DNA from: an uncultured Acetobacteraceae bacterium
GTDB taxonomy: Bacteria; Pseudomonadota; Alphaproteobacteria; Acetobacterales; Acetobacteraceae
Assembly: GCA_964244615.1 (NCBI GenBank)
Contig: CAXTJP010000001.1
Coordinates: forward strand, 27,488-91,487
Length of the DNA: 64,000 nucleotides
Reading direction: 5' to 3'
The position numbers and the translations under genes were made by a program. Positions 36,109 to 61,814 of the stretch are shown here, in pieces. The notes under the pieces are model-generated. The model saw nothing but the letters and a program-made list of their open reading frames with translations, made no database searches and was not told where the DNA came from. Within the stretch, counting starts at the first letter, position 1, and every line of letters starts with the position of its first letter.

Positions 36109-36124
36109 GCGGGGTGCCGGGCCG

Positions 36125-43219: not shown

Positions 43220-43308
43220 CTGCTCTCCCGGCACCCGCGTTTTCCAAAACCCGGCATGAACATAGGGGAAGATGCGTCGGCTTGGCCCTGCCGCGTTTGC
43301 GGAGAAAT

Positions 43309-43392: not shown

Positions 43393-44259
43393 ATGCCGCC
43401 TTCGACCGCTCTGGACCGCCGCGAAATCCTGCCGCGCTTCCAGCAGCGGCTGCGGCAGGTCCTGGCCCGATCCGAGATGAGCCAGACCGATTTCGCCCTG
43501 GCCGCGGGGATCGACCGGAGCACCCTCTCCCAGCTGCTGGCCGCAGGGGCGGACCGGCTGCCGAGGGTCGAGTCGGTCGCCGCCATCGCGCAGATCGGCA
43601 ACACCTCGATGGACTGGTTGCTCGGCCTGAGCCAGGGCGAGCAGCCGGGGTCGAACATGGTGTCCGAGAGCCTGCAGATCGAACGCGACGCGCCGAGCCC
43701 GCTCGACGAGCGCCTGCTCGGCTGGCTGAAGGAGGCCTCCGGCTACCGGATACGGCACATCCCCACCACCTTCCCGGACGTGCTCAAGACCGATGCGGTG
43801 ATCGAGGACGAGTACAGCCACTACGCGGCACTGGGGCCGCGCCGCCGGATCGAGATCACCCAGTCCCGCCTGGAGTATCTCCGCCAGCCGGAGACCGAGA
43901 TCGAGTGCTGCACCGCCATCCAGACCTTCGAGGCCCTGGCGCGCGGCGAGGACATCTGGCGCGGCATCAGGCCGGCACAACGGCGCGCGCAGCTGGAGCA
44001 GATCGTCTCGCTGTGCGACGAGTTCTACCCGCGCCTGCGGCTGTTCCTCTACGACCGCAAGGAGCTGTTCTCGATCCCGCTGACCGTGTTCGGGCCGTTG
44101 CGTGCGGCGATCTATCTCGGCCAGACCTACTTCGTGTTCCACTCGACGGAGCACATACGCGCGCTGACCCGCCACTTCGACCAGATCGTGCGCGGCGCCA
44201 TCGTCCAGCCGACCGGCATCGCCGACTACATGGCGAAGTTGCTGGGGCGGAGTTCCTGA
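43393..44259 (+). CDS. XRE/Cro-C1 family transcriptional regulator with C-terminal ligand-binding-like domain
   Basis: N-terminal HTH MSQTDFALAAGIDRSTLSQLL...SMDWLLGL; GAGG RBS. Confidence 0.85.
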   Translation: MPPSTALDRREILPRFQQRLRQVLARSEMSQTDFALAAGIDRSTLSQLLAAGADRLPRVESVAAIAQIGNTSMDWLLGLSQGEQPGSNMVSESLQIERDAPSPLDERLLGWLKEASGYRIRHIPTTFPDVLKTDAVIEDEYSHYAALGPRRRIEITQSRLEYLRQPETEIECCTAIQTFEALARGEDIWRGIRPAQRRAQLEQIVSLCDEFYPRLRLFLYDRKELFSIPLTVFGPLRAAIYLGQTYFVFHSTEHIRALTRHFDQIVRGAIVQPTGIADYMAKLLGRSS

Positions 44260-44361
44260 AGGCAAGCAGCCCGCTACCGGTCGGGTGTCTGTGGAAACTC
44301 CGCGCCAGCACGACCAAAAGTCTTTTGCTTCTTTTCTTCAGAAAAGAAGGCCTTCCTTACC
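44260..44361 (-). repeat. AT-rich MITE/REP-like element, copy D (one arm reduced)
   Basis: The minus strand GGTAAGGAAGGCCTTCTTTTCTGAAGAAAAGAAGCAAAAGACTTTTGGTCGTGCTGGCGCGGAG...CACAGACACCCGACC aligns with copy C; the other end is CTGCTTGCCT. Confidence 0.8.
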
Positions 44362-45138
44362 CGCCCCGATGGCCAGCACCGCGTCGTAGGCGCCCGGTTC
44401 GAACACCGCGACTCCGTCCAGCAACAACGCGTCCCGAACAGCCGCCAGCGCCGGGTCGCCGGCAACCTCATCGATGGCCTGCCGCAGAGCCGCCAGGGTG
44501 GGCGCGTCCGTGCCGGCGCCGGTGATCAGCGGCAGGCCCGGGCTGGCGGCGGTCCAGGCCAGCACGCGCAGCCCGGCGGTCAAGTTCGGGCGCAGACGCT
44601 GCAGCTGCGCCCAGGTGACGCAGTCGATCGCCGCCACGTCGGCGCGGCCCTCCGCCACCGCGCGGATGCTGGCCGCGTGGGCGCCGGTCCAGACGATTTC
44701 GCCGAAGAACGGGGCACGGCCGGGGAGCGCCGCCACCGCTTGGCGCAACAGGTTCATGCCGCTGTTGGAGGCGGCGTCGTTCACCGCGCAGCGCCGCCCG
44801 CGCAGCGCGGCCAGCGTGCGGGCGGGCTCGGCCGCGCGCACCACGATGGCGCTACGATAGGACGCGCCCTGGCAGCCCAACGCGCGGTAGCAGGGCGTGG
44901 CGACGACGGTGACGCGGCCTCTCAGCGCGGTCGCCAGCGGGTAGCCGCAGGTCTGCGCCAACAGCAGGCCGGAATCGGTCCACAACGCATCGGGGGACGG
45001 TCCTCGCGTCAGCGACGCCGGCGCCTCGACCCCGAGCCGCGTCAGGCGCCCGGCGATGGCGGCCCACAGCGCGTCGGTCGCCGGACGCAGCTCCTCGAAA
45101 TCGTACATCGGCAAGGCGGCGAGACGGGGCGGGTTCAC
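44338..45138 (-). CDS. PhnD/SsuA/transferrin-like periplasmic-binding-fold protein without a signal peptide
   Basis: N-terminus LAALPMYD, LAQTCGYPL, YRSAIVVR, SNSGMN, AHAASI and ADVAAIDCVT; GTG start overlaps the LysR stop (GTGA). Confidence 0.78.
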   Translation of the reverse strand: MNPPRLAALPMYDFEELRPATDALWAAIAGRLTRLGVEAPASLTRGPSPDALWTDSGLLLAQTCGYPLATALRGRVTVVATPCYRALGCQGASYRSAIVVRAAEPARTLAALRGRRCAVNDAASNSGMNLLRQAVAALPGRAPFFGEIVWTGAHAASIRAVAEGRADVAAIDCVTWAQLQRLRPNLTAGLRVLAWTAASPGLPLITGAGTDAPTLAALRQAIDEVAGDPALAAVRDALLLDGVAVFEPGAYDAVLAIGAGKEGLLF

Positions 45139-46052
45139 GGCGGGACGTCGCGCGCGAAGTTGCGGATCATCCACGCGCGAAACACCGCGATGACCGGGTC
45201 GGCCAGGTCGTCGGCCGCGAGATGGAGGAAGTAGCCGTAGCCGTCCTCGAACGTCTCGGCGAAGGGTGTGACGAGGATGCCGGCGGCGATGTCCGGCGCG
45301 AACAGGTCGCGGTCGAGCAGCACCACGCCCTCGCCGCCGGCGGCGTATTGCGCGGCCAGCGCGGCGGTGTCGAAGGCGAGCCCCCGGTTCGTTTGCATGT
45401 CCAGGCCGAAATGCCGGGAGAACGCCTGCCAGATCATGCCCGGCGGCTCGCCCTCGAGCTTGACGTGCAGCAGCTCGTTATCCGCGATGAAGCGGGCTAG
45501 CGCGCGGCCCGGCTGGGCTGCGGCCAGCGCCGGGCTGCAGCCGGGCGTCACGCGCGACATCCACAGCAGGTCCGACACCGCCTCTCCGCTGCGCGGCCGG
45601 TCGTAGACGACGGCCACGTCGGTCTTCGTGGGCGGCGCGCCGGTCATGCCGAGGCTGGAGATCTCGATGAAGATGTCGGGGAAGTCCTTCCGAAACGCCT
45701 GCAGGATGGGCAGGGCCAGCTTCTGCGCGAACGAGGGCGGCAGCTGCAGGCGCAGCGTGCGCAGGCCGCCGCCGTCGCGCACCACGTCGTTCAGCGCGTG
45801 CTCGATCCGGTCGAAGGATCCGCGCACCGTCGGCAGCAGCGCGCCGCCCGCCTTGGTCAGCGCCAGCGATTGCGGGCGCCGCTCGAACAATGCGTGGCCC
45901 AGCAGCTCCTCCAGCCCGATCACGTGCCGGCTGACGGCGCTCTGCGACACGCCGAGCGCCTGTGCGGCCGCCGTGAAGCTGAGGTGGCGCCCGACCGCGT
46001 CGAAGGCGCGAAGCGCGTTCAGCGGCAGCCAGCGCCTGTCGAACGTGACCAA
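45135..46052 (-). CDS. LysR family transcriptional regulator (GcvA-like)
   Basis: HTH LPLNALRAFDAVGRHLSFTAAAQALGVSQSAVSRHVIGLEELLG; start (TTG 46052) uncertain. Confidence 0.9.
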   Translation of the reverse strand: MVTFDRRWLPLNALRAFDAVGRHLSFTAAAQALGVSQSAVSRHVIGLEELLGHALFERRPQSLALTKAGGALLPTVRGSFDRIEHALNDVVRDGGGLRTLRLQLPPSFAQKLALPILQAFRKDFPDIFIEISSLGMTGAPPTKTDVAVVYDRPRSGEAVSDLLWMSRVTPGCSPALAAAQPGRALARFIADNELLHVKLEGEPPGMIWQAFSRHFGLDMQTNRGLAFDTAALAAQYAAGGEGVVLLDRDLFAPDIAAGILVTPFAETFEDGYGYFLHLAADDLADPVIAVFRAWMIRNFARDVPP

Positions 46053-46117: not shown

Positions 46118-46134
46118 AATGCCGATTAGGCATT
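46118..46134. promoter_or_regulatory. Putative LysR recognition site AATGCC-N5-GGCATT (T-N11-A)
   Basis: Perfect inverted repeat containing T46120-N11-A46132, between the divergent LysR and Rieske genes. Confidence 0.65.
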
Positions 46135-46200: not shown

Positions 46201-47409
46201 ATGTCGGAGTTCAGCCGGGTCAGAGCATCGCTGCAATCCCGCCTGCCCGGCCATGCGCTGCCGCAGGCGCTCTACGCCACCGAGGAAGCCTACGAATTCG
46301 ACCTGCGCGCGATCTTCGGGCGCGCTTGGGTGCTGGCCGGCCTGGAATCGGAGCTGCCCGCGCCCGGCTCGGCGCTGGCGCTCACCATCGGCACCTCGCC
46401 CATCGTGGTGCTGCGCGACAAGGCGGGCACGATACGCGGCTTCCACAATTCCTGCCGGCACCGCGGCGCGATGGTCTGCCCGCCCGGCCGCAGCCAGCGG
46501 CCGGTGCTGGTCTGCCCATACCACCAGTGGAGCTACGACCTGACTGGCCGCCTCGTGAGTGCCCGGCGCATGCAGGACGATTTCGACAAGGCCACCCATG
46601 GCCTGCGGCCGATCGAGGTGCGCAACGTCGCCGGCTGCCTGTATGTGAGCCTGTCGGAGGATCCGCCGCCCTTCGACGCGTTCAGCGCCGGCCTGGCCCC
46701 CCTGCTGGCGCCGCACGATCTGGCGAACGCGAAACTGGCGCACGAGGCGGTGTTCATCGAGCGCGCGAACTGGAAGCTGGTGATGGAGAACGCGCGCGAG
46801 TGCTACCACTGCGCGGTGCGCCACCCGGACCTGTCGATCGCCTTCCCGACCGAGGTGCGCGCCCATTTCGAGGGCGACGAGGAGGGCCGCGTAGAGCGTT
46901 TCAACGCCCGCATGGAACGCGCCGGCCTGCCGGTCGGACCCTCCCTGGGCGACTGGTGGGGTGCCGTCCGCTTCCCGCTCAACGACGGCGTGGTGTCGCT
47001 CACCATGGACGGCAAGCACGCCGTCTCCCGCCTGATGATCGAGCAGGAGGCGGGCGATGTCGGATCGGTGCGCTGGGCCGGCGAGCCGAACAGTTTCTGC
47101 CACGCGGTGGCCGACCACGTGTTCGTCTTCACCGCCGAGCCGACCGGGCCGCAGGAGACGCTGGTGACCGCCAAGTGGTTCGTCCACAAGGACGCCGTCG
47201 AGGGCACGGACTACCATCTGGAGAACCTGGTGGCGCTGTGGATGACGACCAACCAGCAGGACATAGAGCTGGTGGAGAACAACCAGCGCGGCGTGAACTC
47301 GATGGGCTACCTGCCGGGGCCATACTCGGAGGAGGCGGAAGCGCTGGTCGGCCGCTTCACGAACTGGTACTGCGCGCAGGCCGAACAGGCGTTGGAGCGG
47401 ATGGACTGA
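46201..47409 (+). CDS. Rieske oxygenase alpha subunit (GbcA/Stc2/CntA-like quaternary amine oxygenase family)
   Basis: Motifs CRHRG, CPYHQW, ENARECYHCAVRH and QQDIELVE; GGAGG RBS before ATG 46201. Confidence 0.92.
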   Translation: MSEFSRVRASLQSRLPGHALPQALYATEEAYEFDLRAIFGRAWVLAGLESELPAPGSALALTIGTSPIVVLRDKAGTIRGFHNSCRHRGAMVCPPGRSQRPVLVCPYHQWSYDLTGRLVSARRMQDDFDKATHGLRPIEVRNVAGCLYVSLSEDPPPFDAFSAGLAPLLAPHDLANAKLAHEAVFIERANWKLVMENARECYHCAVRHPDLSIAFPTEVRAHFEGDEEGRVERFNARMERAGLPVGPSLGDWWGAVRFPLNDGVVSLTMDGKHAVSRLMIEQEAGDVGSVRWAGEPNSFCHAVADHVFVFTAEPTGPQETLVTAKWFVHKDAVEGTDYHLENLVALWMTTNQQDIELVENNQRGVNSMGYLPGPYSEEAEALVGRFTNWYCAQAEQALERMD

Positions 47410-47410
47410 C

Positions 47411-48673
47411 ATGGACGGTCCGGCCGGCAGGTTCCTGCATCGCGAAACGCTGACGGTGACCGCCGGCTACGATGCGGCCCAGCATCACGGGTCGATCAAG
47501 CCGCCGCTGTTCGCCAGCTCCACCTTCGCCTATCGCAGCGCGCAGCACGCCAAGGACGTGCACCAGGCCTATTTCCGCGCCACACCGCCAGAGGCAGGCG
47601 CCGAGCCGGGCTACATCTACGCCCGGCTGGACCACCCGAACATGGCGATGCTGCAGGCCAGGCTGGCCGTGCTGGACGGCGCCGAGGATTCGGCGGTGTT
47701 CAACTGCGGCATGGCGGCCATCAACGCCATCGCCCAGGCGTTCCTGCGGCCGGGGGACACGGTGCTGCACACCAGGCCGCTGTACGGCGGCACCGACGGG
47801 CTGCTCTACAGCCACCTCGCGGCGTTCGGCGTGACACCCGTGGGCATCGCCGACGCGCTGGACGCGGACAGCATACGGGCCGCCGCCCACGAGGCCGCGT
47901 CGCGCGGCCGCATCGGGCTGGTGATGGTGGAGACGCCGGCAAACCCCACCAGCGGCATCGCCGACATCGCGCTGATCGCCGAGGTCGCGTCCGAGATCGG
48001 GCGCGCGCAGGCAACCCGGCCGCTGGTGGTGGTGGACAACACGTTCCTGGGGCCGTTCCAGCAGAACCCGCTGGCCCAGGGTGCCGACCTCTGCGTGACG
48101 TCGCTGACGAAATACGCGGGCGGGCACAGCGATCTTCTGGCCGGCGGAATCAGCGGCGCCGCCGCCCCGATCCACACCCTGAAGCAGCTGCGCACCCTGC
48201 TGGGCAGCCAGCTGGACGGTCATTCGTGCTGGATGGTGCTGCGGTCGCTGGAGACGATGCATTTGCGCACCGAGCGGGCCGGGCGCAACGCCCTGGCGGT
48301 GGCGGACTTCCTGCGCGGCCACCCGGCCGTCGCTTCGGTCAACTACGTGGGCTTCCAGGCGCCCGGCAGCCGCGCGCACGCCGTGTTCGCGCGCCAGTGC
48401 GGCGGGGCGGGTTCGACCTTCACCTTCCGCATCCATGGCGGGGAGCCGGCAGCGTTCCGCATGCTCGACCGGCTGCGTGTCATTCAGATGGCGGTCAGCC
48501 TGGGCGGCACCGAAACACTGATCTGCCATTCGGCCACCACCACCCACGCCAACGTGCCCGCCGCGCGACGGCTGGATGTGGGGATCGACGACAGCTCGCT
48601 GCGCATCTCCGTGGGCGTGGAGCACCAGGACGACCTGATCGAGGACCTGCGCCAGGCGCTGGAGGCGGTCTGA
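47411..48673 (+). CDS. PLP-dependent Cys/Met metabolism enzyme (cystathionine gamma-synthase / methionine gamma-lyase family)
   Basis: Motifs KPPLFASSTF, YIYARL, GMAAI, PLYGGT, VVDNT, PLP lysine SLTKYAGGHSD, VSLGGTETL and RISVGVE. Confidence 0.9.
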   Translation: MDGPAGRFLHRETLTVTAGYDAAQHHGSIKPPLFASSTFAYRSAQHAKDVHQAYFRATPPEAGAEPGYIYARLDHPNMAMLQARLAVLDGAEDSAVFNCGMAAINAIAQAFLRPGDTVLHTRPLYGGTDGLLYSHLAAFGVTPVGIADALDADSIRAAAHEAASRGRIGLVMVETPANPTSGIADIALIAEVASEIGRAQATRPLVVVDNTFLGPFQQNPLAQGADLCVTSLTKYAGGHSDLLAGGISGAAAPIHTLKQLRTLLGSQLDGHSCWMVLRSLETMHLRTERAGRNALAVADFLRGHPAVASVNYVGFQAPGSRAHAVFARQCGGAGSTFTFRIHGGEPAAFRMLDRLRVIQMAVSLGGTETLICHSATTTHANVPAARRLDVGIDDSSLRISVGVEHQDDLIEDLRQALEAV

Positions 48674-50223
48674 TGGACGCGACACCAGAATCGCTGCGCG
48701 GCACCGACCCTTGCGCCATCGACGGCAAGTTCGTGGCCCCGGACGAGCATGCCCAGCTGCTCGTGGTGGGGGCGGGCCCGGCCGGGATCGCCGCGGCGCT
48801 GGAGGGGGCGCGGCTCGGCCTGCGCGTGGTGCTGGTGGACGAGAACCCGGTTTCGGCCTCGCTGATGGGGCTGGACGTGCCGCTGTTCTACGGCCAGCGC
48901 ATGACGGCGTCGGTGCAGGAGCCGGCCCGGATGATCGGGCGCCTGGTCGCATCCACACCCGGCCTGGAAGCGGCGTTCGACGCCGGCGTGGACGTGCGGC
49001 TCGGCATCACCGTCTGGGGCGTGTTCGTCAACGGCGCGGCCCTGAGCGCCCTGCCCGTCCGGGTCGCCGGCCTGTCGGACGGAACAAGAAGCTGGATGTG
49101 CGGCTTCGACGCGCTGATCCTGGCCACCGGCGCGCGCGACCTGGTGCTGGGCTTCCCCGGCGTGGACATCCCCGGCGTGATGGGTGCCCGCGCGCTGCAC
49201 AGCCTGCTGGCCCGCTACGACGCGTTTGACGGCCACCGGCTGCTGATCCTCGGCTCCGGCGACCTGGCCGTGCAGACCGCCCTGCTCGCGCTGGATCGCG
49301 GGCTGCAGGTGGCGGCCCTGGTCGAGGTGTTGCCCGAGGCGCAGGCCGCCCCGGCGTGGGCGGCCTCGCTCACGGCACGGGGGGTTGCGATCCTGACAGG
49401 GGCCACGGTCCTGCGGGCGGAAGGCGTGGGACTAGGCCTGGCCGCGGCGGTGGTCCGCCGGGACGGCGTGGAGCAGCGCCTGGCGTGCGATACCGTCTGC
49501 CTGGCCATCGATGCCGTGCCGGCGATCGAGCTGGCGGGGGCCGCGGGCTGCCGCCTCACCTATCGCGGCGACCTGGGCGGCCACGTGCCGCTTTTGTCGG
49601 CGGACGGCGCAACCTCGCTGCCCGGGACGTTCTGCGCCGGCGACTGTGCCGGCCTGGCCGACGATGCCGCGTGCGAAGACCAGGGCCGCGCGTCCGCACG
49701 CGCCGCCGCACGATGGCTGGAAACCCGCGCGCCGACACAGGCGGCGCCCGCATCCTCACTTGGCCAGGACGGCACGGCGTATCGCCTGGCGTGGATGCGC
49801 GCGCTGCTGATCGAGGAGAGCGTGTCGGCGCCGGTCTGCCTGTGCGAGGAGGTGAGCCGTGCCGAGCTGCTCGGCCTCAAGCCGCCGCGCTACCTCGGCT
49901 GCGCGTCCGAACGGATGGCGGCGCGCGACGGCGCCAGCCTGCTGCGCGACGGGCCGCTGCACCCGGACCAGGTCAAGCGGCTGACCCGCGCCGGCATGGG
50001 CGTGTGCCAGGGCAGGCGGTGCCGCGAACAGATCGCGCTGCTGCTGGCACTGACCTCCGGCGCCTCGCCCGCGGACATCCCGCTGGCGAGCTATCGTGCG
50101 CCGGTGCGGCCGTTGCCGTTGGGCGTGCTGGCCGATCACGCCACGATGCGCGATGGATGGGACGTCTGGTTCGGGATAGGGACGCAGTGGGTGCCGTATG
50201 ACGTGATAGAGACAGGCAAGTGA
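48673..50223 (+). CDS. FAD-dependent oxidoreductase with C-terminal BFD-like [2Fe-2S] domain (opine oxidase A / HcnB-like)
   Basis: Motifs VVGAGPAG, LATGARD, FPGVDIPGV, AGD, VCLCEEV and KRLTRAGMGVCQGRRC; TGATG overlap with the upstream gene. Confidence 0.85.
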   Translation: MDATPESLRGTDPCAIDGKFVAPDEHAQLLVVGAGPAGIAAALEGARLGLRVVLVDENPVSASLMGLDVPLFYGQRMTASVQEPARMIGRLVASTPGLEAAFDAGVDVRLGITVWGVFVNGAALSALPVRVAGLSDGTRSWMCGFDALILATGARDLVLGFPGVDIPGVMGARALHSLLARYDAFDGHRLLILGSGDLAVQTALLALDRGLQVAALVEVLPEAQAAPAWAASLTARGVAILTGATVLRAEGVGLGLAAAVVRRDGVEQRLACDTVCLAIDAVPAIELAGAAGCRLTYRGDLGGHVPLLSADGATSLPGTFCAGDCAGLADDAACEDQGRASARAAARWLETRAPTQAAPASSLGQDGTAYRLAWMRALLIEESVSAPVCLCEEVSRAELLGLKPPRYLGCASERMAARDGASLLRDGPLHPDQVKRLTRAGMGVCQGRRCREQIALLLALTSGASPADIPLASYRAPVRPLPLGVLADHATMRDGWDVWFGIGTQWVPYDVIETGK

Positions 50224-50326
50224 AGCACTCCTTTTTTGAAAAGGAGCAGAAGACTCTTGTCCGTTTGGCGCGCGACAGCCGGACAAAAGTTCTTTGGTTC
50301 TTTCTTTCAAGAAAGAACTCTTGCCT
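50214..50326 (+). repeat. AT-rich MITE/REP-like element, copy E (113 bp)
   Basis: Exact terminal inverted repeats AGGCAAG / CTTGCCT; internal TTGTCCG...CGGACAA stem; fills the whole gap between two operon genes. Confidence 0.85.
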
Positions 50327-51457
50327 ATGATCGCCGTCATCGGCGGCGGCGTCACCGGCCTCAGCGCCGCCTGGTGGCTCGCCCGCGCCGGCCACGACGT
50401 GACCGTGTTCGAGCGCTTCATCGTCGGCTGGGAAGCGTCCGGCCGCAACGGCGGCGGCGCCACACACTACCAGAGCCCGCTGTTCCACGAGGAGCAGCGC
50501 CTGTGGCCGATGATGGACGACCTGCTCGGCTACCCGACCGAGTACCAACGCCGGCGTATCGTCATCAACCTGACGCCGGAGGACGAGGCACGCTACCGGG
50601 CCATGGCGACGCTCACGCGCACGATGGGCTACGAATCCGAAGAGCTCGACGTGAAGCAGTTGCGCGAGCTGGCGCCCTTGGCCACCGAGCAGGCGCTCAG
50701 CGCGCAGTATTTTCGTTTCGGCGGCCACGCCAACCCGCAGCGCACCGTGCAAGCCTATGCCTGGGCGCTGCAGGACCATGGCGGCCGCATCCTGCAGCAC
50801 ACCGACGTGCACGGTTTGAAGACCCGAAACGGCCGCGTCACCGAGATCCTTGCCGGTGGCGACAGGCACGGTTGCGATGCCGTCGTCATCGCGGCGGGGC
50901 CGCAGACCGCGTCCCTGCTGGCGCAACTGGGCGTGGACCTGCCGCTGGCCGCGGCACGGGCCGAAATGATCGTGACCGAGGCGCTGCCGCTGATGCCGGT
51001 GGGCGGCGTGGACGGCAACGGGCTTTACGGCCGGCAGACACGACGCGGCAACCTCGCCTATGGCGGCGGCCCGCATGAGTGGCTGGAGGACGACGCCCAC
51101 CTGCAAGCGGCGCGGCCGACCACGCCGCTGCTGCGCAACCTGGCGGCACGGCTGGCGACGCTGTTCCCGCGCGCCGCGCATGCGCGCGTGCTGCGAAGCT
51201 GGGCCGGCATCGTCGAGAACACGCCGGATGGCCGCCCGGTGCTCGACCGGCTGAGCGCGCCCGACAACGTCACGGTGGCCACGATGTCCAGCGTCGGCTT
51301 CGGGCTGTCGCCGGCGACCGGCCGCGCGGTCGCCGACCTGGTGACGACCGGCGCTTGCAGCTTCACCGACATCGCCAAGCTCGGCATCGGACGGTTCGCC
51401 GGGCTGCCGGCGGATTGGCGCGCGGCGCGTGGATGGCAGGCGCTGGTTCCCGCGTGA
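50327..51457 (+). CDS. D-amino-acid oxidase family FAD-binding oxidoreductase (opine oxidase B / HcnC-like)
   Basis: Motifs VIGGGVTG, ASGRNGGG, HANPQ, RSWAG..TPDGRP and GFGLSPATG; ATG 50327 directly follows element E. Confidence 0.88.
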   Translation: MIAVIGGGVTGLSAAWWLARAGHDVTVFERFIVGWEASGRNGGGATHYQSPLFHEEQRLWPMMDDLLGYPTEYQRRRIVINLTPEDEARYRAMATLTRTMGYESEELDVKQLRELAPLATEQALSAQYFRFGGHANPQRTVQAYAWALQDHGGRILQHTDVHGLKTRNGRVTEILAGGDRHGCDAVVIAAGPQTASLLAQLGVDLPLAAARAEMIVTEALPLMPVGGVDGNGLYGRQTRRGNLAYGGGPHEWLEDDAHLQAARPTTPLLRNLAARLATLFPRAAHARVLRSWAGIVENTPDGRPVLDRLSAPDNVTVATMSSVGFGLSPATGRAVADLVTTGACSFTDIAKLGIGRFAGLPADWRAARGWQALVPA

Positions 51458-52710
51458 CGCGGCGGTTTTCGATCGTCTCGCTGCTCGCCCAGGCGGCGAA
51501 GGGGCAGAAGGGCTGGGCGCCGCAATGGCGGTCGCCCGAGCCCAAATCCGAGTACGACGCGCTGATCGTGGGCGGCGGCGGGCATGGTCTGGCCTGCGCC
51601 TACTACCTGGCGAAGACCTACGGGTTGAAGAACGTCGCGGTCATCGAAAAAGGCCTGGTCGGCTCTGGCAATGTCGGGCGCAACACCACCATCATCCGGT
51701 CGAACTACTTACTGCCGGGCAACATCCCGTTCTACGAAAAGTCTTTGAGTTTGTGGGAGGGGCTGGAGCAGGAGATCAACTACAACGCGATGATCAGCCA
51801 GCGCGGCGTGCTGAACCTGTTCCATTCCGACGGCCAGCGCGATGCGGCGATCCGGCGCGGCAACGCGATGCTGCTGCACGGCATCGACGCGCGATTGCTG
51901 AGCCGCGACGAGATACGCGCGCGCCACCCGTTCCTGGATTTCGACACCGCGCGCTTCCCGATCATGGGCGGCCTGCTGCAGCAGCGCGGCGGCACCGTGC
52001 GGCACGACGCCGTCGCCTGGGGCTATGCGCGCGCGGCGGACAGGCTCGGCGTGGACATCTTGCAGCATTGCGAGCTGACGGGGCTGCGCATCGAGGGCGG
52101 CCGGGTGATCGGTGCGGAAACCTCGCGCGGGTTCATCGGCGCCAGAAAGATCGGTCTGTCGGTCGCCGGCAACTCGTCGCGCGTGGCCGCCATGGCAGGC
52201 TTGCGCTTGCCGATAGAGAGCCACGTGCTGACCGCCTTCGTGAGCGAGGGCATAAAGCCGATGATCGACTGCGTGATCACCTTCGGCGCGGGGCATTTCT
52301 ACATCAGCCAGTCGGACAAAGGCGGTCTGGTGTTCGGCGCCAGCGTGGACGGCTACAACTCCTACGCCCAGCGCGGCAACCTGCCGTGCATGGAGGAGAC
52401 CTGCGAGGAGGCGATGGCGTTGATGCCGTCGATCGGCCGGCTGCGCATGCTGCGCAGCTGGGGCGGTGTCATGGACATGACGATGGATGGCAGCCCGATC
52501 ATCGACCGCACGCCGGTCGAGGGTCTTTACTTCAACGGCGGCTGGTGCATCGGCGGCTTCAAGGCGACACCCGCCGCCGGCCTGTGCCTTGCCCACCTGA
52601 TGGCAAAAGACGAGCCGCACCCAGTGGCAACGAAGTACCGCCTGGACCGCTTCGCCACCGGCCACCTGCTCGACGAAACCGGCGGCGGCACCAACATGGC
52701 ACTCCATTGA
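51454..52710 (+). CDS. soxB: Heterotetrameric sarcosine oxidase beta subunit
   Basis: Motifs GGGGHGLACAYYLAK, GNVGRNTTIIRSNY, RHDAVAWGYA and GWCIGGFKATP; GTG start. Confidence 0.92.
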   Translation: MTRRFSIVSLLAQAAKGQKGWAPQWRSPEPKSEYDALIVGGGGHGLACAYYLAKTYGLKNVAVIEKGLVGSGNVGRNTTIIRSNYLLPGNIPFYEKSLSLWEGLEQEINYNAMISQRGVLNLFHSDGQRDAAIRRGNAMLLHGIDARLLSRDEIRARHPFLDFDTARFPIMGGLLQQRGGTVRHDAVAWGYARAADRLGVDILQHCELTGLRIEGGRVIGAETSRGFIGARKIGLSVAGNSSRVAAMAGLRLPIESHVLTAFVSEGIKPMIDCVITFGAGHFYISQSDKGGLVFGASVDGYNSYAQRGNLPCMEETCEEAMALMPSIGRLRMLRSWGGVMDMTMDGSPIIDRTPVEGLYFNGGWCIGGFKATPAAGLCLAHLMAKDEPHPVATKYRLDRFATGHLLDETGGGTNMALH

Positions 52711-52750
52711 TAAAGATCTTCCGGTTCTTTTCTTCAGAGAACGCCTGTCC
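52711..52750 (+). repeat. Right-arm remnant of the AT-rich element
   Basis: AAAGATCTTCCGGTTCTTTTCTTCAGAGAACGCCTG resembles the right arm GGTTCTTT(C)TTCAAGAAAGAAC..CTTGCCT. Confidence 0.5.
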
Positions 52751-52996
52751 ATGCGCCTGACCTGCCCTTTCTGCGGCGAACGCGGCCTGGAAGAATTCGT
52801 GTACGCAGGCGACGCAACCCTCTCCCGTCCCGGCTCGAACGCCGAGCCTTCTGCCTGGGTGGACTACGTGTATTTCCGGGACAACCAAGCAGGCCCGCAC
52901 AGCGAACTCTGGTACCACGCCGCCGCGTGCCGGCAGTTCCTGACGGTGGAACGCGACACGCGCACGCATGAAGTGCTCTCGACGGTCGTCCGGTGA
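52751..52996 (+). CDS. soxD: Sarcosine oxidase delta subunit
   Basis: Zn-binding pattern CPFCGER..EEF, YVYFRDN, WYHAAACRQF and RDTRTHE. Confidence 0.92.
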   Translation: MRLTCPFCGERGLEEFVYAGDATLSRPGSNAEPSAWVDYVYFRDNQAGPHSELWYHAAACRQFLTVERDTRTHEVLSTVVR

Positions 52997-55914
52997 CACA
53001 GGCGTTTCGCAGTGAAACAGGCGGCCGGATCGACCGGGCGCGTCCTGTCGCGTTCACGTTCGACGGCAAGCGGCTCGAGGGGTTCGAGGGCGACACGCTG
53101 GCCTCCGCCCTGCTCGCCAACGGCGTGCGGCTGGTCGGCCGGTCGTTCAAGTATCATCGGCCGCGCGGCGTCCTGTCGGCCGGGCCGGAGGAGCCGAACG
53201 CGCTGGTCGAGTTGCGCGAAGGTGCCGCACGCGAGCCGAACACGCGGGCGACGACCGCGGAACTGTTCGAAGGCTTGCGGGCGAAGAGCCAGAACCGTTT
53301 TCCCAGCCTGCGACACGATTTTCTCGCGATCAACGGCGTGCTGGCTCCGGTGTTGGGGGCGGGCTTCTACTACAAGACGTTCATGTGGCCCGCGGCGTTC
53401 TGGGAGCGTGTTTACGAGCCGCTGATCCGTCGGGCCGCCGGGCTCGGCCGCGCTTCCGGGTTGCCCGACCCGGATGCCTACGAGAAGCAGACGGCTTTTG
53501 CCGACGTGCTCATCATCGGCGCGGGTCCGGCCGGTCTGGCGGCCGCCCTGGCGGCGGCCGATGGCGGTGCGCGGGTGGTGCTGGCGGAGCAGGATTTCGC
53601 CATCGGCGGCCGGCTGCTGTCGGACCGCCGGACGATCGCCGGGCAGCCCGCCAGCGTGTGGCTCGCCGAAGCCGAGGCGAGGTTGCGCGCGGCCCCTGGC
53701 GTGCGGCTCCTGACACGCACGACCATCACCGGCGTCTACGACGGTGGCACCTATGCCGGCGTGGAGCGTGTGAGCGACCATCTGGCGCAGCCCGGCACGC
53801 TGCCGAGGCAGCGTCTGTGGCGCATCGTGGCGCCGCGCGCGGTGCTGGCGACCGGCGCCATCGAACGGCCGCTGGTGTTCGGCGGCAACGACCTGCCGGG
53901 CGTGATGCTGGCCGGCGCGGTGCGCAGCTACGTCAACCGCTTCGGTGTCAGGCCGGGCACGCGCGCCGTGGTGTTTGCCAACAACGACGATGCTGCCGGC
54001 ACGATTGGGGATCTCGCTCAGGCGGGCATCGAAGTCGCAGGCCTCGTCGATGCGCGGCCGGAGACGCCGCCTGCGTTGCGGGCGTGGGCGAAGTCGTTCG
54101 GGGTTCCGGTGTTCGGCGGGGCGACGGTCCAGCAGGCGGTGGGCGGTGCAGCGCTGAAGGGCGTGGTGCTCGGCGGCGACGCTGCGGGCACCAGGCTCGC
54201 CTGCGACCTGCTCGCAATGTCCGGCGGGTGGAACCCCGCGGTCCACCTCGCCTCGCATCATGGCGGCAAGCCCGTGTGGCAGGAGGCACTCGCAGCCTTC
54301 GTGCCTGGCCCCATGCCCCCCGGCATGCAGGCGGCCGGTGCGGCGGCCGGGCATTTCTGCCTGCGCGACGCGCTCGCGACCGGTGCGGCGGCGGGTGGCG
54401 GCGCGGCCGATGTGGCGCCATCGACGGGTGAGGAGAATGCGGCGGTGACGCCGCTCTGGGAGGTGCCCGACGCGACCGGGAAGGCGTTCGTGGATTTCCA
54501 GAACGACGTCATCGCGTCCGACGTGGCGCTCGCCGCGCGTGAGGGTTTCACCGCGGTCGAGCACCTCAAGCGCTACACCACGCTCGGCATGGCGACGGAC
54601 CAGGGCAAGACGTCCAATGTGACGGGCCTGGCGATGATGGCGGCGCTGACCGGGCGGACGATCGCCCAGACCGGCACGACCGTGTTCCGGCCGCCCTACA
54701 CGCCCGTCGCCATCGGGGTGATGGCGGGCCCGCATCGCGGCGCGCATTGGCGGCCGACGCGTCGCACGCCCGCGCATGAATGGGCGCTGGCGCAGGGCGC
54801 GGCCTTTGTCGAGGCGGGCGAGTGGCTGCGCGCGACGCATTTCGCCCAGCCCGACGAGACGATGCAGCAGAGCGTAAACCGCGAGGTGCGCCTGGTGCGG
54901 CGATCGGCGGGGTTCTGCGACGTGTCCACGCTCGGGAAGATCGACGTGCAGGGCCCCGATGCCGCGGCGTTTCTTGACTTCGTCTATGCAAACACCATCG
55001 CCAGCCTGGCGCCCGGCCGGGTGCGTTACGCGCTGATGCTGCGCGAGGATGGGTTTGCCTTCGACGACGGCACCGTGGCAAGGCTGTCGGACACGCATTT
55101 CGTGGCGACCATGACGACGGCCAACGCGTGGCGCGTGCTGCAACACCTGGATTTCTGCCGGCAAAGGCTCAAGCCGGAGCTCGATGTCTGCGTGGAGCCG
55201 GTCACCGACCAGTGGGCGCAGTTCGCGTTGGCGGGACCGCAGGCGCGCTCGGTGCTCGAGACGGTTGTCGGCACTGCCGATGTCAGCGATGGCGGGTTGC
55301 CGTTCATGGCGATGACCGAGGCGATCGTCTGCGGCGTTCCCGCCCGGATTTTCCGCATCTCGTTCTCCGGCGAACTGGCCTACGAAGTCGCGGTCGGCGC
55401 CTCGCACGCCGCGGCCCTGGCGGGGGCGTTGCAGGCGGCCGGCGCCGTCCCTTACGGGGTGGAGGCGTTGAACGTCTTGCGCCTGGAGAAGGGCCATCCC
55501 GTGGGCGCGGAGCTGAACGGGCAGACCACCGCGGCCGATCTGGGGCTGGGCCGCATGCTGAAGAAGAAGGATTTCATCGGCCGCGCGCTGTCGGCACGTC
55601 CGGCGCTGCTGGACCCCGAACGGCCGGCGCTGGTCGGGCTGCGCCCCCGTGCGCCGGGTGCTGTGCTGCAGGCGGGCGCACATCTGGTCCCGGCCGGTGC
55701 TGCCGGGCACAGCGCGAACGATCATGGCACCGTCACGTCCGCCGCCTACTCGGCCACGTTGGGATGCTGGATCGGCCTTGGTCTGCTGGCGGGTGGCCAG
55801 CGGCGCGTGGGCGAAGTGTATCGCGCCGTCAACCCGCTGCAGAAGACGGCGACGGAGGTGGACATCGTGTCCCAGATGTTCCACGACCCGGCGGGGCTGT
55901 CGCTGCGTGGCTGA
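52993..55914 (+). CDS. soxA: Sarcosine oxidase alpha subunit
   Basis: Motifs GRSFKYHRPRG, VDFQNDV, HLKRYTTLGMATDQGK, DVSTLGKID and a GcvT-like C-terminus. Confidence 0.94.
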   Translation: MTQAFRSETGGRIDRARPVAFTFDGKRLEGFEGDTLASALLANGVRLVGRSFKYHRPRGVLSAGPEEPNALVELREGAAREPNTRATTAELFEGLRAKSQNRFPSLRHDFLAINGVLAPVLGAGFYYKTFMWPAAFWERVYEPLIRRAAGLGRASGLPDPDAYEKQTAFADVLIIGAGPAGLAAALAAADGGARVVLAEQDFAIGGRLLSDRRTIAGQPASVWLAEAEARLRAAPGVRLLTRTTITGVYDGGTYAGVERVSDHLAQPGTLPRQRLWRIVAPRAVLATGAIERPLVFGGNDLPGVMLAGAVRSYVNRFGVRPGTRAVVFANNDDAAGTIGDLAQAGIEVAGLVDARPETPPALRAWAKSFGVPVFGGATVQQAVGGAALKGVVLGGDAAGTRLACDLLAMSGGWNPAVHLASHHGGKPVWQEALAAFVPGPMPPGMQAAGAAAGHFCLRDALATGAAAGGGAADVAPSTGEENAAVTPLWEVPDATGKAFVDFQNDVIASDVALAAREGFTAVEHLKRYTTLGMATDQGKTSNVTGLAMMAALTGRTIAQTGTTVFRPPYTPVAIGVMAGPHRGAHWRPTRRTPAHEWALAQGAAFVEAGEWLRATHFAQPDETMQQSVNREVRLVRRSAGFCDVSTLGKIDVQGPDAAAFLDFVYANTIASLAPGRVRYALMLREDGFAFDDGTVARLSDTHFVATMTTANAWRVLQHLDFCRQRLKPELDVCVEPVTDQWAQFALAGPQARSVLETVVGTADVSDGGLPFMAMTEAIVCGVPARIFRISFSGELAYEVAVGASHAAALAGALQAAGAVPYGVEALNVLRLEKGHPVGAELNGQTTAADLGLGRMLKKKDFIGRALSARPALLDPERPALVGLRPRAPGAVLQAGAHLVPAGAAGHSANDHGTVTSAAYSATLGCWIGLGLLAGGQRRVGEVYRAVNPLQKTATEVDIVSQMFHDPAGLSLRG

Positions 55915-56398
55915 CGCGGGCGTCACGATCGGCGAGGCTCCGCCCGGGTCGCTGGCGGGGATCGCCGCGTTCCGGGATCGTGCGCGACTGATGGCGGCGT
56001 TGCGGGCGGCGTTCGGCGTGGACGTGCCGGTCACGTCGCGTTACGTGCAGGCTGGCGGTGTTGCATTGTCCTGCCTGGCGCCCGGACGTTTTCTCGCGAG
56101 CGGCGCGCGTGATGCGGATCTGCCGGCGAGGCTGGCCCGAAGCCTGGCCGGCCTGGCGGCCGTGACGGACCAGAGCGACATGTGGGCGGTCTTCGTCGTG
56201 TCCGGTGCGTCGGTGCGCGAGGTCCTGGCGAAAGTGGTGCCGGTCGATCTCGGTGACGACCAGTTCCGCACAGGCGACGTGGCGTTGACGCGCGCCGGCC
56301 ACCTGGACGTCCGATTATGGCGCATGACGGAACACAGCTACGAGATATCCACAACCCGCTCCTTCGGAACCGACCTGCGCCACCTGCTCCGACGATGA
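55907..56398 (+). CDS. soxG: Sarcosine oxidase gamma subunit
   Basis: Position after soxA; motifs LAPGRF, AVTDQS and REVLAKVVPVDL. Confidence 0.8.
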   Translation: MADAGVTIGEAPPGSLAGIAAFRDRARLMAALRAAFGVDVPVTSRYVQAGGVALSCLAPGRFLASGARDADLPARLARSLAGLAAVTDQSDMWAVFVVSGASVREVLAKVVPVDLGDDQFRTGDVALTRAGHLDVRLWRMTEHSYEISTTRSFGTDLRHLLRR

Positions 56399-56400
56399 CC

Positions 56401-56437
56401 GAAAGTTCCTTGCGCCTTCAGGAAAGATGGCCTGCCT
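56401..56437 (-). repeat. Left-arm remnant of the AT-rich element
   Basis: The minus strand AGGCAGGCCATCTTTCCTGAAGGCGCAAGGAACTTT resembles the left arm of copy G and encodes the last codons and stop of the ABC ATPase. Confidence 0.45.
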
Positions 56438-58376
56438 TTGGCAACTCATGAGCCGGCAAGTGGCACCGGACAGGATGCGCATCCCCCGCCACAAACGCGG
56501 GCGCCACCGTTTCGCAAACGGGCCCGATCTTCCGCGGACAGTTGAGCTGAAAGATGCACCCAGCAGCCACCGTGCCGGGCGCCGGAATGTCGCCCTTCAG
56601 CCGGATCCGCGTGGAGGCCGTGGCGGCCGACACGAGGGCCGCGGTGTAGGGGTGGTGCGGGCCGGCGAGCACGTCCTCGGCCGGGCCGATTTCCAGCATC
56701 TGGCCCAGGTACATCACGGCGATGCGGTCGGCCAGGTAGCGCACCACCGCGAGGTCGTGGGAGATGAACACGTAGCAGACGTGCTCGCGCACCTGCAGCC
56801 CGGCGAGCAGGTTGAGGATGGCGGCCTGGACGGAGACGTCGAGCGCGGAGGTGGGTTCGTCGCAGATCACCACGCGCGGCCGGCCGGCAAAGGCGCGCGC
56901 GATGGCGGCGCGCTGCTTCAGCCCGCCCGAGAGCGCGCGCGGGCGCATGGCGAGGTGGGCCTCGCCCAGGCGCACGCCCTGGGCCAACTCGGACAGCGCG
57001 GCGTTCAGCGTGCGGCCGGACAGGCCTGCGAGGCGGGCCAGGGGGCGCGACAGGATGTGCCGGATGCGGTGCGCGCGGTTCAGCGCGGAATCGGGGTTCT
57101 GGAAGATGATCTGGATGGCGCGGCGGTCCGCGCGGCTGCGGGCCTTCATCGTCGGGCCGAGGGCCGCCCCGTCGAGCGTGAGCGTGCCGCCCGGATCGGG
57201 CGCGGTCAGGCCCAGCAGCATGCGCGCCAGCGTGGTCTTGCCGCTGCCCGACTCGCCGACCAGGCCCAGCGTCTCGCCAGCCGACAGCGTGAGCGTGACG
57301 TCGTCCACGGCGCGCACCGTGCCGCCCGCGCCGGCGTAGGTCTTGGACAGATGGCGCGCCACCAGCACAGGTGCGCCCGCGGTGCGCGGCTGAACCGCGC
57401 CGGCAGCGGCATCCAGCGAGGCCGGAAACGGCGGGGTGAAGTGGCAGCGCGCCATGTGGGCGCCGGTCCAGCGCGCCGGGGGCGGCGTGGCCCCGCAGAT
57501 CGCTTCCCGGCGGTCGCAGCGCGGGGCGAACACGCACGGGTCCAGCTTCGCGCCCGGCGCGGGAAGCCCGCCCGCGATGGTCTGCAGCGCGCCGTCCTGC
57601 TTGCGTCGCCCGGCGCCCGGCAGGCAGGCGACCAGGCGCGCCGTGTAGGGGTGTGCCGGCGCGCGCAGCACGTCCTGCGCGGCGCCCTGCTCCACCAGGG
57701 TGCCGGCGTAGAGCACGCCTATGCGGTCGCACATGCGCGCCACCATCGGCAGGTTGTGGCTGATCAGCAGCACGGCGGTGCCCTGCTCGCGGCGCAGCGC
57801 GTCCACCAGGTCGAGGATCTCGGCCTCCACCGTCGCGTCCAGCCCGGTCGTCGGCTCGTCCAGCACGAGGAGATGCGGGTTCTTGGCCAGTGCCATCGCG
57901 ATCACCACGCGCTGCTGCGTGCCGCCGGAGAGCTGGTGCGGGTAGGCGGACAGCACGCGGTCGGGCGACGGGATCTGCACGCGGGCGAGCATCGCCGCCG
58001 CCCTGGCTCGGACCGACGATACGCCCAGCACCGTAAAGGCCTCGGCCAGCTGGTCGCCGACCGTCAGGGTGGGGTTCAGCGCGCGGCTGGGGTCCTGGTA
58101 GACCATCGAGACGCGAAGCGCCCAAAGCTGGCGCAGCCCGGCGCGCGACAACGCCAGCACATCCTGCCCGTCGATGGTGATGCTGCCGGCGGTGACACGC
58201 CCCGCCGGCGGCAAGGCGCGCAGGGCGGCGAAAGCGGCGGTGGATTTGCCGCAGCCGGATTCGCCCACCAGGCCGAAACACTCGCCGGGCGCCACGTCGA
58301 ACGACACGCGATGCAGGATGGCCGTGTTCCCGTAGGACACCGACAATTCGGCGAGCGACAGCGCGGGCGCGGTCAC
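56418..58376 (-). CDS. Peptide/nickel-type ABC transporter ATP-binding protein with two fused NBDs (DppD/F-like)
   Basis: Two Walker A motifs, GESGCGKS and GESGSGKT; LSGG signatures; DEPTT/DEPTS; HPYT oligopeptide-transporter C-terminal motifs. Confidence 0.92.
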
Positions 58377-59188
58377 CGCAACGCGTCCTGCAGACCCTCG
58401 GCCACCAGGTTGACGCCGACCACCAGCGATGCCGTGGCCAGGGCGGCGAAACCCACCGTCCAGCCGTAGCCGCCGACGATCAGCCCGTAATTCTCAGCGA
58501 TCGACAGGCCCCAATCCGGCGAGGGCGGCTGTATGCCGAAGCCCAGGAAACTTAGCGAAGCGACGGTGAAGATGGCGTAGCCCAGGCGCACCGTCACCTC
58601 CACCAGGATCGGCGGCAGGATGTTGGGCAGTATCTCCACGAACATGATGTGCAGCGCACCCTCGTTGCGCAGTTGCGCGGCCGGAACGTAATCCAGCTTG
58701 CACTCCGCCAGCACGGCGCTGCGCACGGTGCGCGCGATGATCGGCGTGAACACCAGCGCGATCACCAGCGTGACGTTGAACGACGACGGCCCGAGCGCCA
58801 CCAGCACCAGCAACGCCACCACGATCAGCGGCAGCGCCAGTATCACCTCGATCAGCCGGCTCAGCACCGTGTCGACCCAGCCGCCGGCATAGCCGGTGAC
58901 CAGGCCCAGCGTGGTGCCGCACAGCATGGCCAGCAGCGTGGCGGCAGGAGCGACCGACAGGATGGGCCGGGCGCCGGCGATGACGCGGGAGAACACATCC
59001 CGGCCGATCTGGTCGGTGCCGAACCAGTGTTGCGCGGAGGGCGGGGCCAGCGCGTTCATCAGGTCGTCAGCGTAGGGATCTTGCGGGGCCAGGTGACCAC
59101 CGAAGATGGCGCAAATCGCCCAGAAGCCCACCACCATCAAGCCAAGAAAGAAAGGCGTTCTTTTTCGAGAAAAAGAAACAAGGTTCAT
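58373..59188 (-). CDS. Peptide ABC transporter permease (DppC-like)
   Basis: Motifs HWFGTDQIGRDVFSR and PPSPDWG; ATG 59188 overlaps the upstream stop (ATGA). Confidence 0.9.
   Translation of the reverse strand: MNLVSFSRKRTPFFLGLMVVGFWAICAIFGGHLAPQDPYADDLMNALAPPSAQHWFGTDQIGRDVFSRVIAGARPILSVAPAATLLAMLCGTTLGLVTGYAGGWVDTVLSRLIEVILALPLIVVALLVLVALGPSSFNVTLVIALVFTPIIARTVRSAVLAECKLDYVPAAQLRNEGALHIMFVEILPNILPPILVEVTVRLGYAIFTVASLSFLGFGIQPPSPDWGLSIAENYGLIVGGYGWTVGFAALATASLVVGVNLVAEGLQDALR
59144..59188 (+). repeat. Element-like arm embedded in the 5' end of the DppC-like gene
   Basis: AAGAAAGAAAGGCGTTCTTTTTCGAGAAAAAGAAACAAGG matches the left-arm pattern GGAAGGC.TTCTTTTT.GA.AAAAAGAAGCAAA; strongly AT-rich within a GC-rich operon. 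Confidence 0.5.
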
Positions 59189-61664: not shown

Positions 61665-61690
61665 GGTTGACTCCTGCTAGGCTACGCTTA

Positions 61691-61814
61691 AGGCAAGGCC
61701 TGCTTTTTTGAAAAGCGACAAAAAACTTCGGGTCATGCTGTCGCGGAGGTTTCCACAACGCGCAACCAGGCAACAAAAGTTTTTTGGTTCTTTTCAAAAA
61801 AGAACCGCTTGCCT
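61691..61814 (+). repeat. AT-rich MITE/REP-like element, copy G (124 bp)
   Basis: Exact terminal inverted repeats AGGCAAG / CTTGCCT; core GGTCATGCTGTCGCGGAGGTTTCCAC is shared with copies C and D; contains the TTG start of the MFS gene. Confidence 0.85.

Follow-up and report, generated by a model that had tools for sequence, protein, structure and literature searches.

In Pseudomonas and Chromohalobacter, the three N-methyl groups of glycine betaine are removed by three enzymes acting in series, GbcAB (BmoAB), DgcAB and SoxBDAG. The series opens with a group V Rieske oxygenase and closes with a heterotetrameric SoxBDAG enzyme that has a folate domain, and genes for one-carbon (C1) disposal lie nearby. 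Group V enzymes act on quaternary amines and are marked by a Glu and a Cys-x-x-Cys signature beside the mononuclear iron, together with two iron-binding His residues (PMC10952381). An operon of similar design is described here from a 64,000-nt stretch of DNA, referred to as the window, of an uncultured Acetobacteraceae bacterium (GenBank assembly GCA_964244615.1, contig CAXTJP010000001.1, positions 27,488 to 91,487). The operon occupies positions 46201-56398 of the window and is composed of eight head-to-tail genes on the plus strand, as identified by direct reading and profile matches. Judged by the families of its products, it probably serves to break down an imported alpha-amino acid that is N-methylated, most likely N,N,N-trimethylated, and has a leaving group at the gamma position.

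Coding frames were picked by third-position GC, which is 0.87-0.92 for the eight operon genes in a window of approximately 70% G+C. The source assembly (G000) is 3.07 Mb in 180 contigs and is 92% complete. The first gene (46201-47409) encodes a predicted Rieske oxygenase alpha subunit of group V and the Stc2/GbcA-like N-demethylase type, with Pfam Rieske and Ring_hydroxyl_A domains. After a 1-nt gap follows the gene for a Cys/Met-metabolism pyridoxal phosphate (PLP) enzyme (47411-48673; PF01053), which belongs to a distinct operon-linked clade of NCBIfam PRK07049 and is predicted to be a gamma-lyase. This gene overlaps by 1 nt (TGATG) with the third (48673-50223), encoding a flavoprotein subunit that resembles OoxA, HcnB and the N-terminal part of SoxA and has a C-terminal BFD-like 2Fe-2S/SO_alpha_A3 region (Pfam Pyr_redox_2, SO_alpha_A3 and Fer2_BFD). 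The fourth gene (50327-51457), separated by a 103-nt gap, encodes an OoxB/SoxB-like amine dehydrogenase subunit of the DAO family (Pfam DAO, 209 bits) and overlaps by 4 nt with the gene for a soxB-family beta subunit (51454-52710; TIGR01373, 667 bits against a cut-off of 529). A 40-nt gap precedes the gene for a soxD-family delta subunit (52751-52996; Pfam SoxD, 106 bits; TIGR01374, 101 against a cut-off of 116.5), which overlaps by 4 nt with that for a soxA-family alpha subunit containing a folate-binding GCV_T domain (52993-55914; TIGR01372, 1290 against 1164; Pfam Fer2_4, SO_alpha_A3, GCV_T and GCV_T_C). The last gene of the operon encodes a soxG-family gamma subunit (55907-56398; Pfam SoxG, 30.7 bits; TIGR01375, 79 against 144) and overlaps its predecessor by 8 nt. 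A convergent gene begins 19 nt 3' of soxG. From this layout we infer that the eight genes are co-transcribed and are controlled by the LysR-family regulator encoded divergently from them.

The gene arrangement is far beyond chance, and another 11 genomes of the genus, along with approximately 70 further species, share it. Among the 11 other genus genomes compared, the eight genes and lysR are collinear in 10, with protein identities of 54-93%, and the remaining one (G004, locus L023) keeps the eight genes and has no lysR match. Two genus loci have interrupted matches, for which assembly error is possible: the PLP gene of L023 is split into two overlapping pieces, and in L016 (genome G017) a TAA lies inside the PLP match, the OoxA match covers just 330 of the 516 residues and SoxA is broken in two. 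Outside the genus, three distant PLP homologs (64-71% identity) were found on a Methylobacterium organophilum-like contig, in a 7.4-Mb alphaproteobacterial genome and in an Azospirillaceae metagenome-assembled genome (MAG), all with the same core; the homolog of the 7.4-Mb genome is 71% identical to a Ferrovibrionaceae locus. Two of these three loci have a GbcB-type reductase gene inserted after the Rieske gene, one has a monomeric DAO-family oxidase and an electron transfer flavoprotein (ETF):quinone oxidoreductase in place of soxBDAG, and one has purU downstream.

A scan with one genome per species returned 80 loci. Three of these, with 53-54% identity, lie outside the operon clade; they hold the PLP gene alone and group on the tree with the structure 5IJG and with a paralog on contig C15 of the source assembly. 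The operon clade, including the three distant loci, comprises 80 loci, and neighbor counts are limited to those with enough flank; the counts are not independent, since related species share ancestry. The Rieske gene is immediately upstream of the PLP gene in 68 of 71 clade loci, the OoxA-like gene is immediately downstream in 71 of 73, and the OoxB-like gene is next in 69 of 71. A third oxidase then follows in 45 of 51, being soxB in 37 and a monomeric sarcosine oxidase (MSOX)-like gene in eight. Two loci within the clade, L060 and L105, are without the partner genes, and L060 is a 2.3-kb contig. Carriers belong to at least five orders and include Acetobacteraceae, Azospirillaceae, Ferrovibrionaceae, Caulobacterales, Sphingomonadales and Hyphomicrobiales (Methylobacterium, Jiella and Segnochrobactrum). 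Isolates with the operon include Jiella sp. M17.18, Novosphingobium sp. B 225, Methylobacterium organophilum and Aurantimonas sp. VKM B-3413. In this unit, the PLP enzyme belongs to the fixed core. An earlier note on this DNA, made from the sequence alone, had described eight same-strand, mostly overlapping genes with repeat insertions, and its coordinates proved exact to the base; it had also made its reading depend on conservation of the PLP gene in this neighborhood in other genomes, and the synteny survey of the 80 clade loci, from at least five orders, shows exactly such a fixed core.

The closest matches of the Rieske protein in the Protein Data Bank are 3N0Q, a structural-genomics protein (365 bits), and Stc2 (3VCA, 351 bits), with CntA at 116 bits. 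The ligands of the Rieske 2Fe-2S cluster (C85-R-H87 and C105-P-Y-H108) are present, as are E200-C201-Y-H203-C204 and H208 at the mononuclear iron, and both sets are at least 97% conserved among 61 orthologs. The protein is not a GbcA equivalog, as it scores 412 bits against NF058607 with a cut-off of 670.

The PLP enzyme matches PF01053 with 335 bits (cut-off 27) and passes PRK07049 narrowly (514 bits against 504). Its nearest structures are 5IJG and 7SWH, both of PRK07049 and both entries without a functional name, and in the sources consulted no member of PRK07049 had an assigned function. Methionine gamma-lyases (MGLs) are the closest characterized enzymes at approximately 229 bits, and the MGL equivalog TIGR01328 is not reached (319 bits against 549.7). 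Across 88 operon-clade sequences, Y70, R72, Y125, D209, K234, S363 and R398 are invariant, and the position of the MGL cysteine is Gly127 in all 88, giving the motif YGGT where MGL has YGCT. On the tree the operon-linked enzymes form a single separate clade, with Y41, A47, H51, L73, D129, T230 and L243 as clade-specific residues relative to PRK07049 proper. Enzymes of the Cys/Met family use gamma-substituted 2-aminobutyrates as substrates and require a primary alpha-amine, and their active site is built across a dimer; a gamma-lyase activity is predicted here for the operon enzyme.

A PRK07049-proper paralog is encoded on contig C15 of the source assembly (16256-17533; positions 8257-9537 of L024), with 613 bits and 48% identity to the operon enzyme. 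Paralogs of this type are present in nearly every genome of the genus and form a clade separate from the operon enzymes. The family search shows one TGA within the match of the C15 paralog, and the surrounding genes (aldo-keto reductase, MazG and glycosyltransferase) give no hint of its chemistry. Above its cut-off, PRK07049 has no member in any of the 14 named control genomes, Caulobacter vibrioides among them, so that no model organism could be linked to the operon by this route.

The third and fourth genes encode an adjacent pair made up of a Pyr_redox_2 subunit with a BFD-like 2Fe-2S motif and a DAO subunit, which is the composition of opine oxidase and HcnBC. The nearest structures of the OoxA-like subunit are the N-terminal half of SoxA and PH1363 of the Pyrococcus proline dehydrogenase, and that of the OoxB-like subunit is 1Y56_B, the beta subunit of the heteromeric proline dehydrogenase. 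Neither subunit has a folate domain. Activity on N-(carboxyalkyl) amino acids would mark an opine oxidase of this type; for the pair described here, the surroundings point to N-methyl substrates. The last four genes have the SoxBDAG order B-D-A-G, with the beta and alpha subunits above their cut-offs, a GCV_T domain in alpha, and soxD and soxG products below their cut-offs and matched by Pfam. A cluster that is annotated as heterotetrameric sarcosine oxidase often has another N-methyl amino acid as its substrate, and N-methylglutamate dehydrogenase, for example, has been misannotated in this way (PMC13236597). The SoxBDAG-type enzyme is described here as a predicted N-methyl amino acid oxidase, its family not implying sarcosine as the substrate. 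The replacement of SoxBDAG by a gene resembling monomeric N-methyl-amino-acid oxidases in eight loci fits the last oxidative step being removal of an N-methyl group.

All open reading frames (ORFs) of 83 loci were clustered, and the recurrent groups were annotated. The FdsABG formate dehydrogenase and FdhD recur in 13-17 loci, a glutathione (GSH)-formaldehyde dehydrogenase recurs in 10, and S-formylglutathione hydrolase and purU recur as well. Because free formaldehyde arises from both a Rieske N-demethylase and an amine dehydrogenase without folate, these neighbors for C1 disposal support methyl removal, and the proposal of the earlier note that N-methyl groups are taken off is thereby backed.

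The following steps, and their order, are deduced from the chemistry of the families. The Stc2/GbcA-type Rieske oxygenase would hydroxylate one N-methyl group of a quaternary amine, with release of formaldehyde. The OoxA/OoxB-like heteromeric flavoprotein would then oxidize the resulting tertiary amine so that the second methyl group is lost, and the SoxBDAG-type enzyme would take the last one and pass it to tetrahydrofolate through the GCV_T domain of SoxA. The freed alpha-amino group could then form the PLP aldimine, and gamma-elimination would yield 2-oxobutyrate, ammonia and the gamma substituent. Demethylation is placed before the PLP step because the PLP enzyme requires a free alpha-amino group.

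The regulatory gene lies at 45135-46052 on the minus strand, just beyond the interval that the earlier note had assigned to the operon, and is divergent from it. Its product is a LysR-family regulator of the GcvA/choline-sulfate-regulator subfamily (Pfam HTH_1 and LysR_substrate), with GcvA as the best NCBIfam match (192 bits, under the cut-off), and a divergent LysR homolog is present in 58 of 69 related loci with sufficient flank. The regulator would turn the operon on in response to the substrate or an intermediate. Within the 148-nt divergent spacer, direct reading identified the dyad ATGCCGATTAGGCAT (T-N11-A) at 46119-46133, a candidate LysR box, and an identical dyad is found in the spacers of L019, L031 and L034. 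The lysR-Rieske spacer of genome G016 (L013, 4560-4700) contains approximately six tandem 24-bp units of ATGCCGA(G/A)TAGGCATTATCGCCC, compared with a single copy in the window.

An AT-rich palindromic element, as copies or fragments, accounts for both larger gaps of the operon and for the 19 nt that follow soxG. A repeat element of this kind, identified by direct reading and assigned to repeat families D1, D2 and D6, fills 50224-50326 between the ooxA-like and ooxB-like genes, and a 40-nt fragment (52711-52750; family D2) precedes soxD. The element also occurs at 39278-39392, 44306-44345 and 61690-61804, among four other intergenic spots of the region; together with 50218-50326, 52712-52741 and 56391-56420, these are the extents of the element family in the window. 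A promoter and terminator scan found no plus-strand site above shuffle expectation, including no terminator-like site in the 50224-50326 element.

Downstream of the operon, a probable uptake system of the Dpp/Opp type is encoded on the minus strand (56418-61598), identified by Pfam matches. This ATP-binding cassette (ABC) importer is composed of a fused double ATPase (56418-58376), two permeases (58373-59059 and 59185-60129) and a family-5 binding protein (60126-61598), for which the best NCBIfam match is NikA/Opp5A at 117 bits, under the cut-off. Within the genus the operon has a family-5 ABC system of this kind next to it, as it does in L042, L050 and L086 (54-72% identical), and a second family-5 ABC type is found in seven loci (L027-L029, L035, L036, L047 and L104). 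In Sphingomonadales and Caulobacterales, a major facilitator superfamily (MFS) transporter is found instead of the ABC system.

Upstream of the regulator are five further genes identified by Pfam. A tetratricopeptide repeat (TPR)-sulfotransferase (37434-39299, plus strand), which lacks a signal peptide and whose true start is probably further upstream, is followed by a TonB-dependent receptor (39413-42001, minus strand), a membrane di-iron protein of the FA_desaturase family (42308-43234, minus strand), an XRE regulator (43393-44259, plus strand) and a signal-less protein with a PhnD-like binding fold (44338-45138, minus strand), the gene of which overlaps lysR by 4 nt. NCBIfam gave no specific name for any of these five proteins. 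The TPR-sulfotransferase and the PhnD-like protein, which are unrelated, share the ending EGLLF-stop, read from an arm of the palindromic element. The receptor/TPR-sulfotransferase pair, or the receptor, is beside the operon in approximately 16 loci of Acetobacteraceae, Caulobacterales and Sphingomonadales; the pair was recorded at L044, L058, L073, L082, L094, L097, L103, L106 and L109. In Caulobacterales and Sphingomonadales the pair often occurs with the MFS transporter and a secreted, signal-peptide-bearing hydrolase resembling platelet-activating factor (PAF)-acetylhydrolase and PETase. Throughout the genus, the operon is accompanied by the desaturase-like, XRE and PhnD-like set. Two of these genes, the desaturase-like and the PhnD-like one, are also beside the operon in Segnochrobactrum (L039), and in Jiella (L068) they are on the operon strand after the oxidase genes.

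A second cluster of the proline-betaine/glycine-betaine type lies 9 kb upstream of the operon (29401-37288). It encodes a DgcA-like flavoprotein of the old yellow enzyme (OYE) and FAD type (29401-31461, minus strand), a Rieske oxygenase fused to a plant-type ferredoxin (Fer2) domain (31482-33071, minus strand), an OpuAC/choline-type ABC importer (33260-36108, plus strand) and an MSOX enzyme resembling N-methyltryptophan oxidase (36125-37288; 454 bits, cut-off 257). The GbcA cut-off is attained by neither of the two Rieske genes in the window. Since this separate betaine cluster is present, the operon is read as a second, different route and not as the general betaine route.

The known compound that best joins an alpha-trimethylammonium group with a gamma-substituted aminobutyrate is N,N,N-trimethylhomoserine, which is found unbound as homoserine betaine or, through an ether bond to glycerol, in the betaine lipid diacylglyceryl trimethylhomoserine (DGTS). 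We tentatively suggest that the substrate is homoserine betaine or, with better prospects, a larger conjugate such as the deacylated DGTS head group. A binding protein of the peptide/opine type, a TonB receptor and a secreted hydrolase resembling lipases fit the larger conjugate better than a free osmolyte. The operon might then be the missing bacterial route for the trimethylhomoserine of DGTS or homoserine betaine, an assignment that we regard as possible and not as probable, with uptake of the compound or its glyceryl ether by the TonB receptor and the family-5 ABC or MFS transporter, three demethylases and a PLP gamma-lyase. In some lineages, the secreted PAF-acetylhydrolase-like lipase would act before uptake. 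A profile search of the genome with PF11899 (BtaA, DGTS synthesis) gave no match, but the control genomes likewise gave none, so that this negative carries no weight. In the literature searched, no paper was found on this gene set, nor on the catabolism of homoserine betaine or the DGTS head group.

Algae, fungi, cyanobacteria and phosphate-starved bacteria make betaine lipids and homoserine betaine in abundance, and both are rich in nitrogen. If the proposal is true, a tightly conserved operon found in common freshwater and soil Alphaproteobacteria would be a concrete candidate for the breakdown of these compounds, and the PRK07049 clade and the OoxAB-like pair would gain a first function. 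Whatever the substrate, the operon marks an undescribed methylated-amine pathway that would send C1 units and 2-oxobutyrate to central metabolism.

Several points weigh against this pathway or against the substrate named for it. Neither the window nor the rest of the 92%-complete assembly encodes a GbcB-type (FNR) reductase, and no full FNR-type reductase was found in four of five near-complete genus genomes (G006, G008, G010 and G016). These four genomes and G000 all carry the operon-type Rieske gene, and G000 also has the second Rieske gene; the sole match of the reductase search in the G000 genome is the Fer2 tail of the latter's product. A reductase gene is found inside the operon of L027, L029 and L066. 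The lack of a reductase leaves a gap in the electron supply of the Rieske oxygenase, which the flavoprotein steps might conceivably fill. Stc2 alone is able to take off two methyl groups (PMC10952381), and given this double demethylation the OoxAB-like pair may serve something other than the second demethylation. The operon soxB is the only soxB-type gene found in the assembly, so the enzyme may also handle ordinary sarcosine. The importers are of the family-5 ABC (peptide/opine/nickel) type or MFS proteins, not OpuAC, ProX or BCCT, which speaks against a small free betaine as the substrate. A gamma hydroxyl or ether oxygen is a poor leaving group for gamma-elimination. The cytoplasmic sulfotransferase could, as speculation, activate the gamma oxygen, but its gene is present in only approximately one locus in five. 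Free homoserine, finally, would not need a dedicated lyase.

The same uptake genes have also been considered as an entry path for an opine-like or aminocarboxypropyl amine, such as a chelator of the nicotianamine, phytosiderophore or staphylopine type. Such a compound would enter through the TonB receptor and a NikA/CntA-like ABC system, the Rieske, OoxAB-like and Sox-like enzymes would each cut a separate C-N bond, and the PLP enzyme would remove a gamma amine. The best, weak matches of the family-5 binding protein are indeed nickel and staphylopine-metal binding proteins, the receptor is a repeated neighbor of the operon in three orders, the OoxAB-like pair is a member of the opine-oxidase/HcnBC/proline-dehydrogenase group, and aminocarboxypropyl units are gamma-substituted 2-aminobutyrates. 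This explanation is nevertheless unlikely. Both the folate-binding GCV_T domain of SoxA and the recurrent formate, formaldehyde and purU genes point to one-carbon units and not to larger alkyl groups, the Rieske protein matches the N-demethylase Stc2 (351 bits) much better than it does CntA, which cleaves a C-N bond (116 bits), and most carrier genomes are, by their record titles, MAGs of freshwater plankton.

A sulfur-containing substrate was emphasized in the earlier note, which called the PLP enzyme a C-S lyase and placed the pathway on an N- or S-methylated sulfur amino acid or similar osmolyte. The substrate would then be methionine, homocysteine or cysteine betaine or an S-methylated osmolyte, from which the PLP enzyme would release methanethiol or sulfide. 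That MGLs are the closest characterized relatives of the enzyme (approximately 229 bits) is in keeping with this, and the logic of three demethylations holds equally for methionine betaine. Against it stand the glycine at the YGCT cysteine position in 88 of 88 operon-linked enzymes, the score of 319 bits against the MGL equivalog cut-off of 549.7 and the recurrent neighbors of the 80 loci, among which no gene for sulfur disposal (methanethiol oxidase, sulfide or sulfite) was found. Methionine betaine is not known as an abundant natural product. The S-methyl compounds named in the earlier note, S-methylmethionine (SMM) and dimethylsulfoniopropionate (DMSP), have no N-methyl groups, so that the three N-demethylase-type enzymes (Rieske, OoxAB and Sox) would be idle. 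We therefore consider a sulfur substrate distinctly unlikely; the conserved catabolic unit and the N-methyl removal of the earlier interpretation are retained, and its sulfur emphasis is not.

A variant glycine betaine pathway, in which the Rieske enzyme would produce dimethylglycine, the OoxAB-like pair sarcosine and SoxBDAG glycine, with the PLP enzyme as a passenger or side reaction, would account for the parallel of the three enzyme types with GbcAB, DgcAB and SoxBDAG, for soxBDAG being the only copy found in the assembly and for no canonical GbcA being evident where neither window Rieske protein reaches that cut-off, but it is very improbable. The PLP gene is kept between the Rieske and OoxA genes in 68-71 of approximately 72 loci, and its retention across at least five orders, together with a dedicated clade, argues that it is not a passenger; moreover, glyA and sdaA of standard glycine betaine clusters are not in the operon, the separate betaine cluster 9 kb upstream has its own OpuAC-type transporter, and several relatives have a second SoxA/SoxB set near the operon. 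The synteny and the PLP gene as an integral member bear out the view, also taken in the earlier note, of a conserved catabolic unit other than standard glycine betaine breakdown.

Among known systems, the homarine operon homABCDER was tried as a match and ruled out, as it has a flavin ring-opening pair, a peptidase and an aldehyde dehydrogenase (PMC13236597). The demethylation of an imported alpha-amino acid proposed here is closest in plan to GbcAB-DgcAB-SoxBDAG, from which the operon differs by its middle pair of the OoxAB/HcnBC type and by the embedded Cys/Met PLP enzyme. It also differs in having no reductase gene, in its family-5 ABC or MFS importer in place of ProX, OpuAC or BCCT, and in a Rieske protein that is not a GbcA equivalog. 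The OoxA/OoxB-like pair shares with OoxAB/NoxAB, HcnBC and 1Y56 the same two-subunit design, in which a Pyr_redox_2 subunit with a BFD-like Cys motif accompanies a DAO-family catalytic subunit. The similarity is low (38-91 bits to 1Y56), however, and the operon has no gene for a small third subunit and places the pair in the context of demethylation and not of opine use. With MGL, cystathionine gamma-synthase (CGS) and cystathionine gamma-lyase (CGL), the PLP enzyme has in common the fold family and the catalytic residues, namely the PLP lysine, the stacking Tyr, the Asp to the pyridine N and the carboxylate Arg. Compared with MGL, it has Gly for Cys, R261/T262 for the Lys-Asp pair and an insertion of approximately 10 residues before the YxR motif. 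In the breakdown of stachydrine and hydroxyproline betaine, the later steps are carried out by an N-methylproline demethylase of the OYE type and by enzymes for proline or hydroxyproline, and no PLP enzyme of the gamma family is known to take part. For the first step, the closest characterized relative of the operon Rieske protein is Stc2 of Sinorhizobium meliloti (3VCA), which shares the E-C-x-x-C motif and acts on an alpha-trialkylammonio carboxylate.

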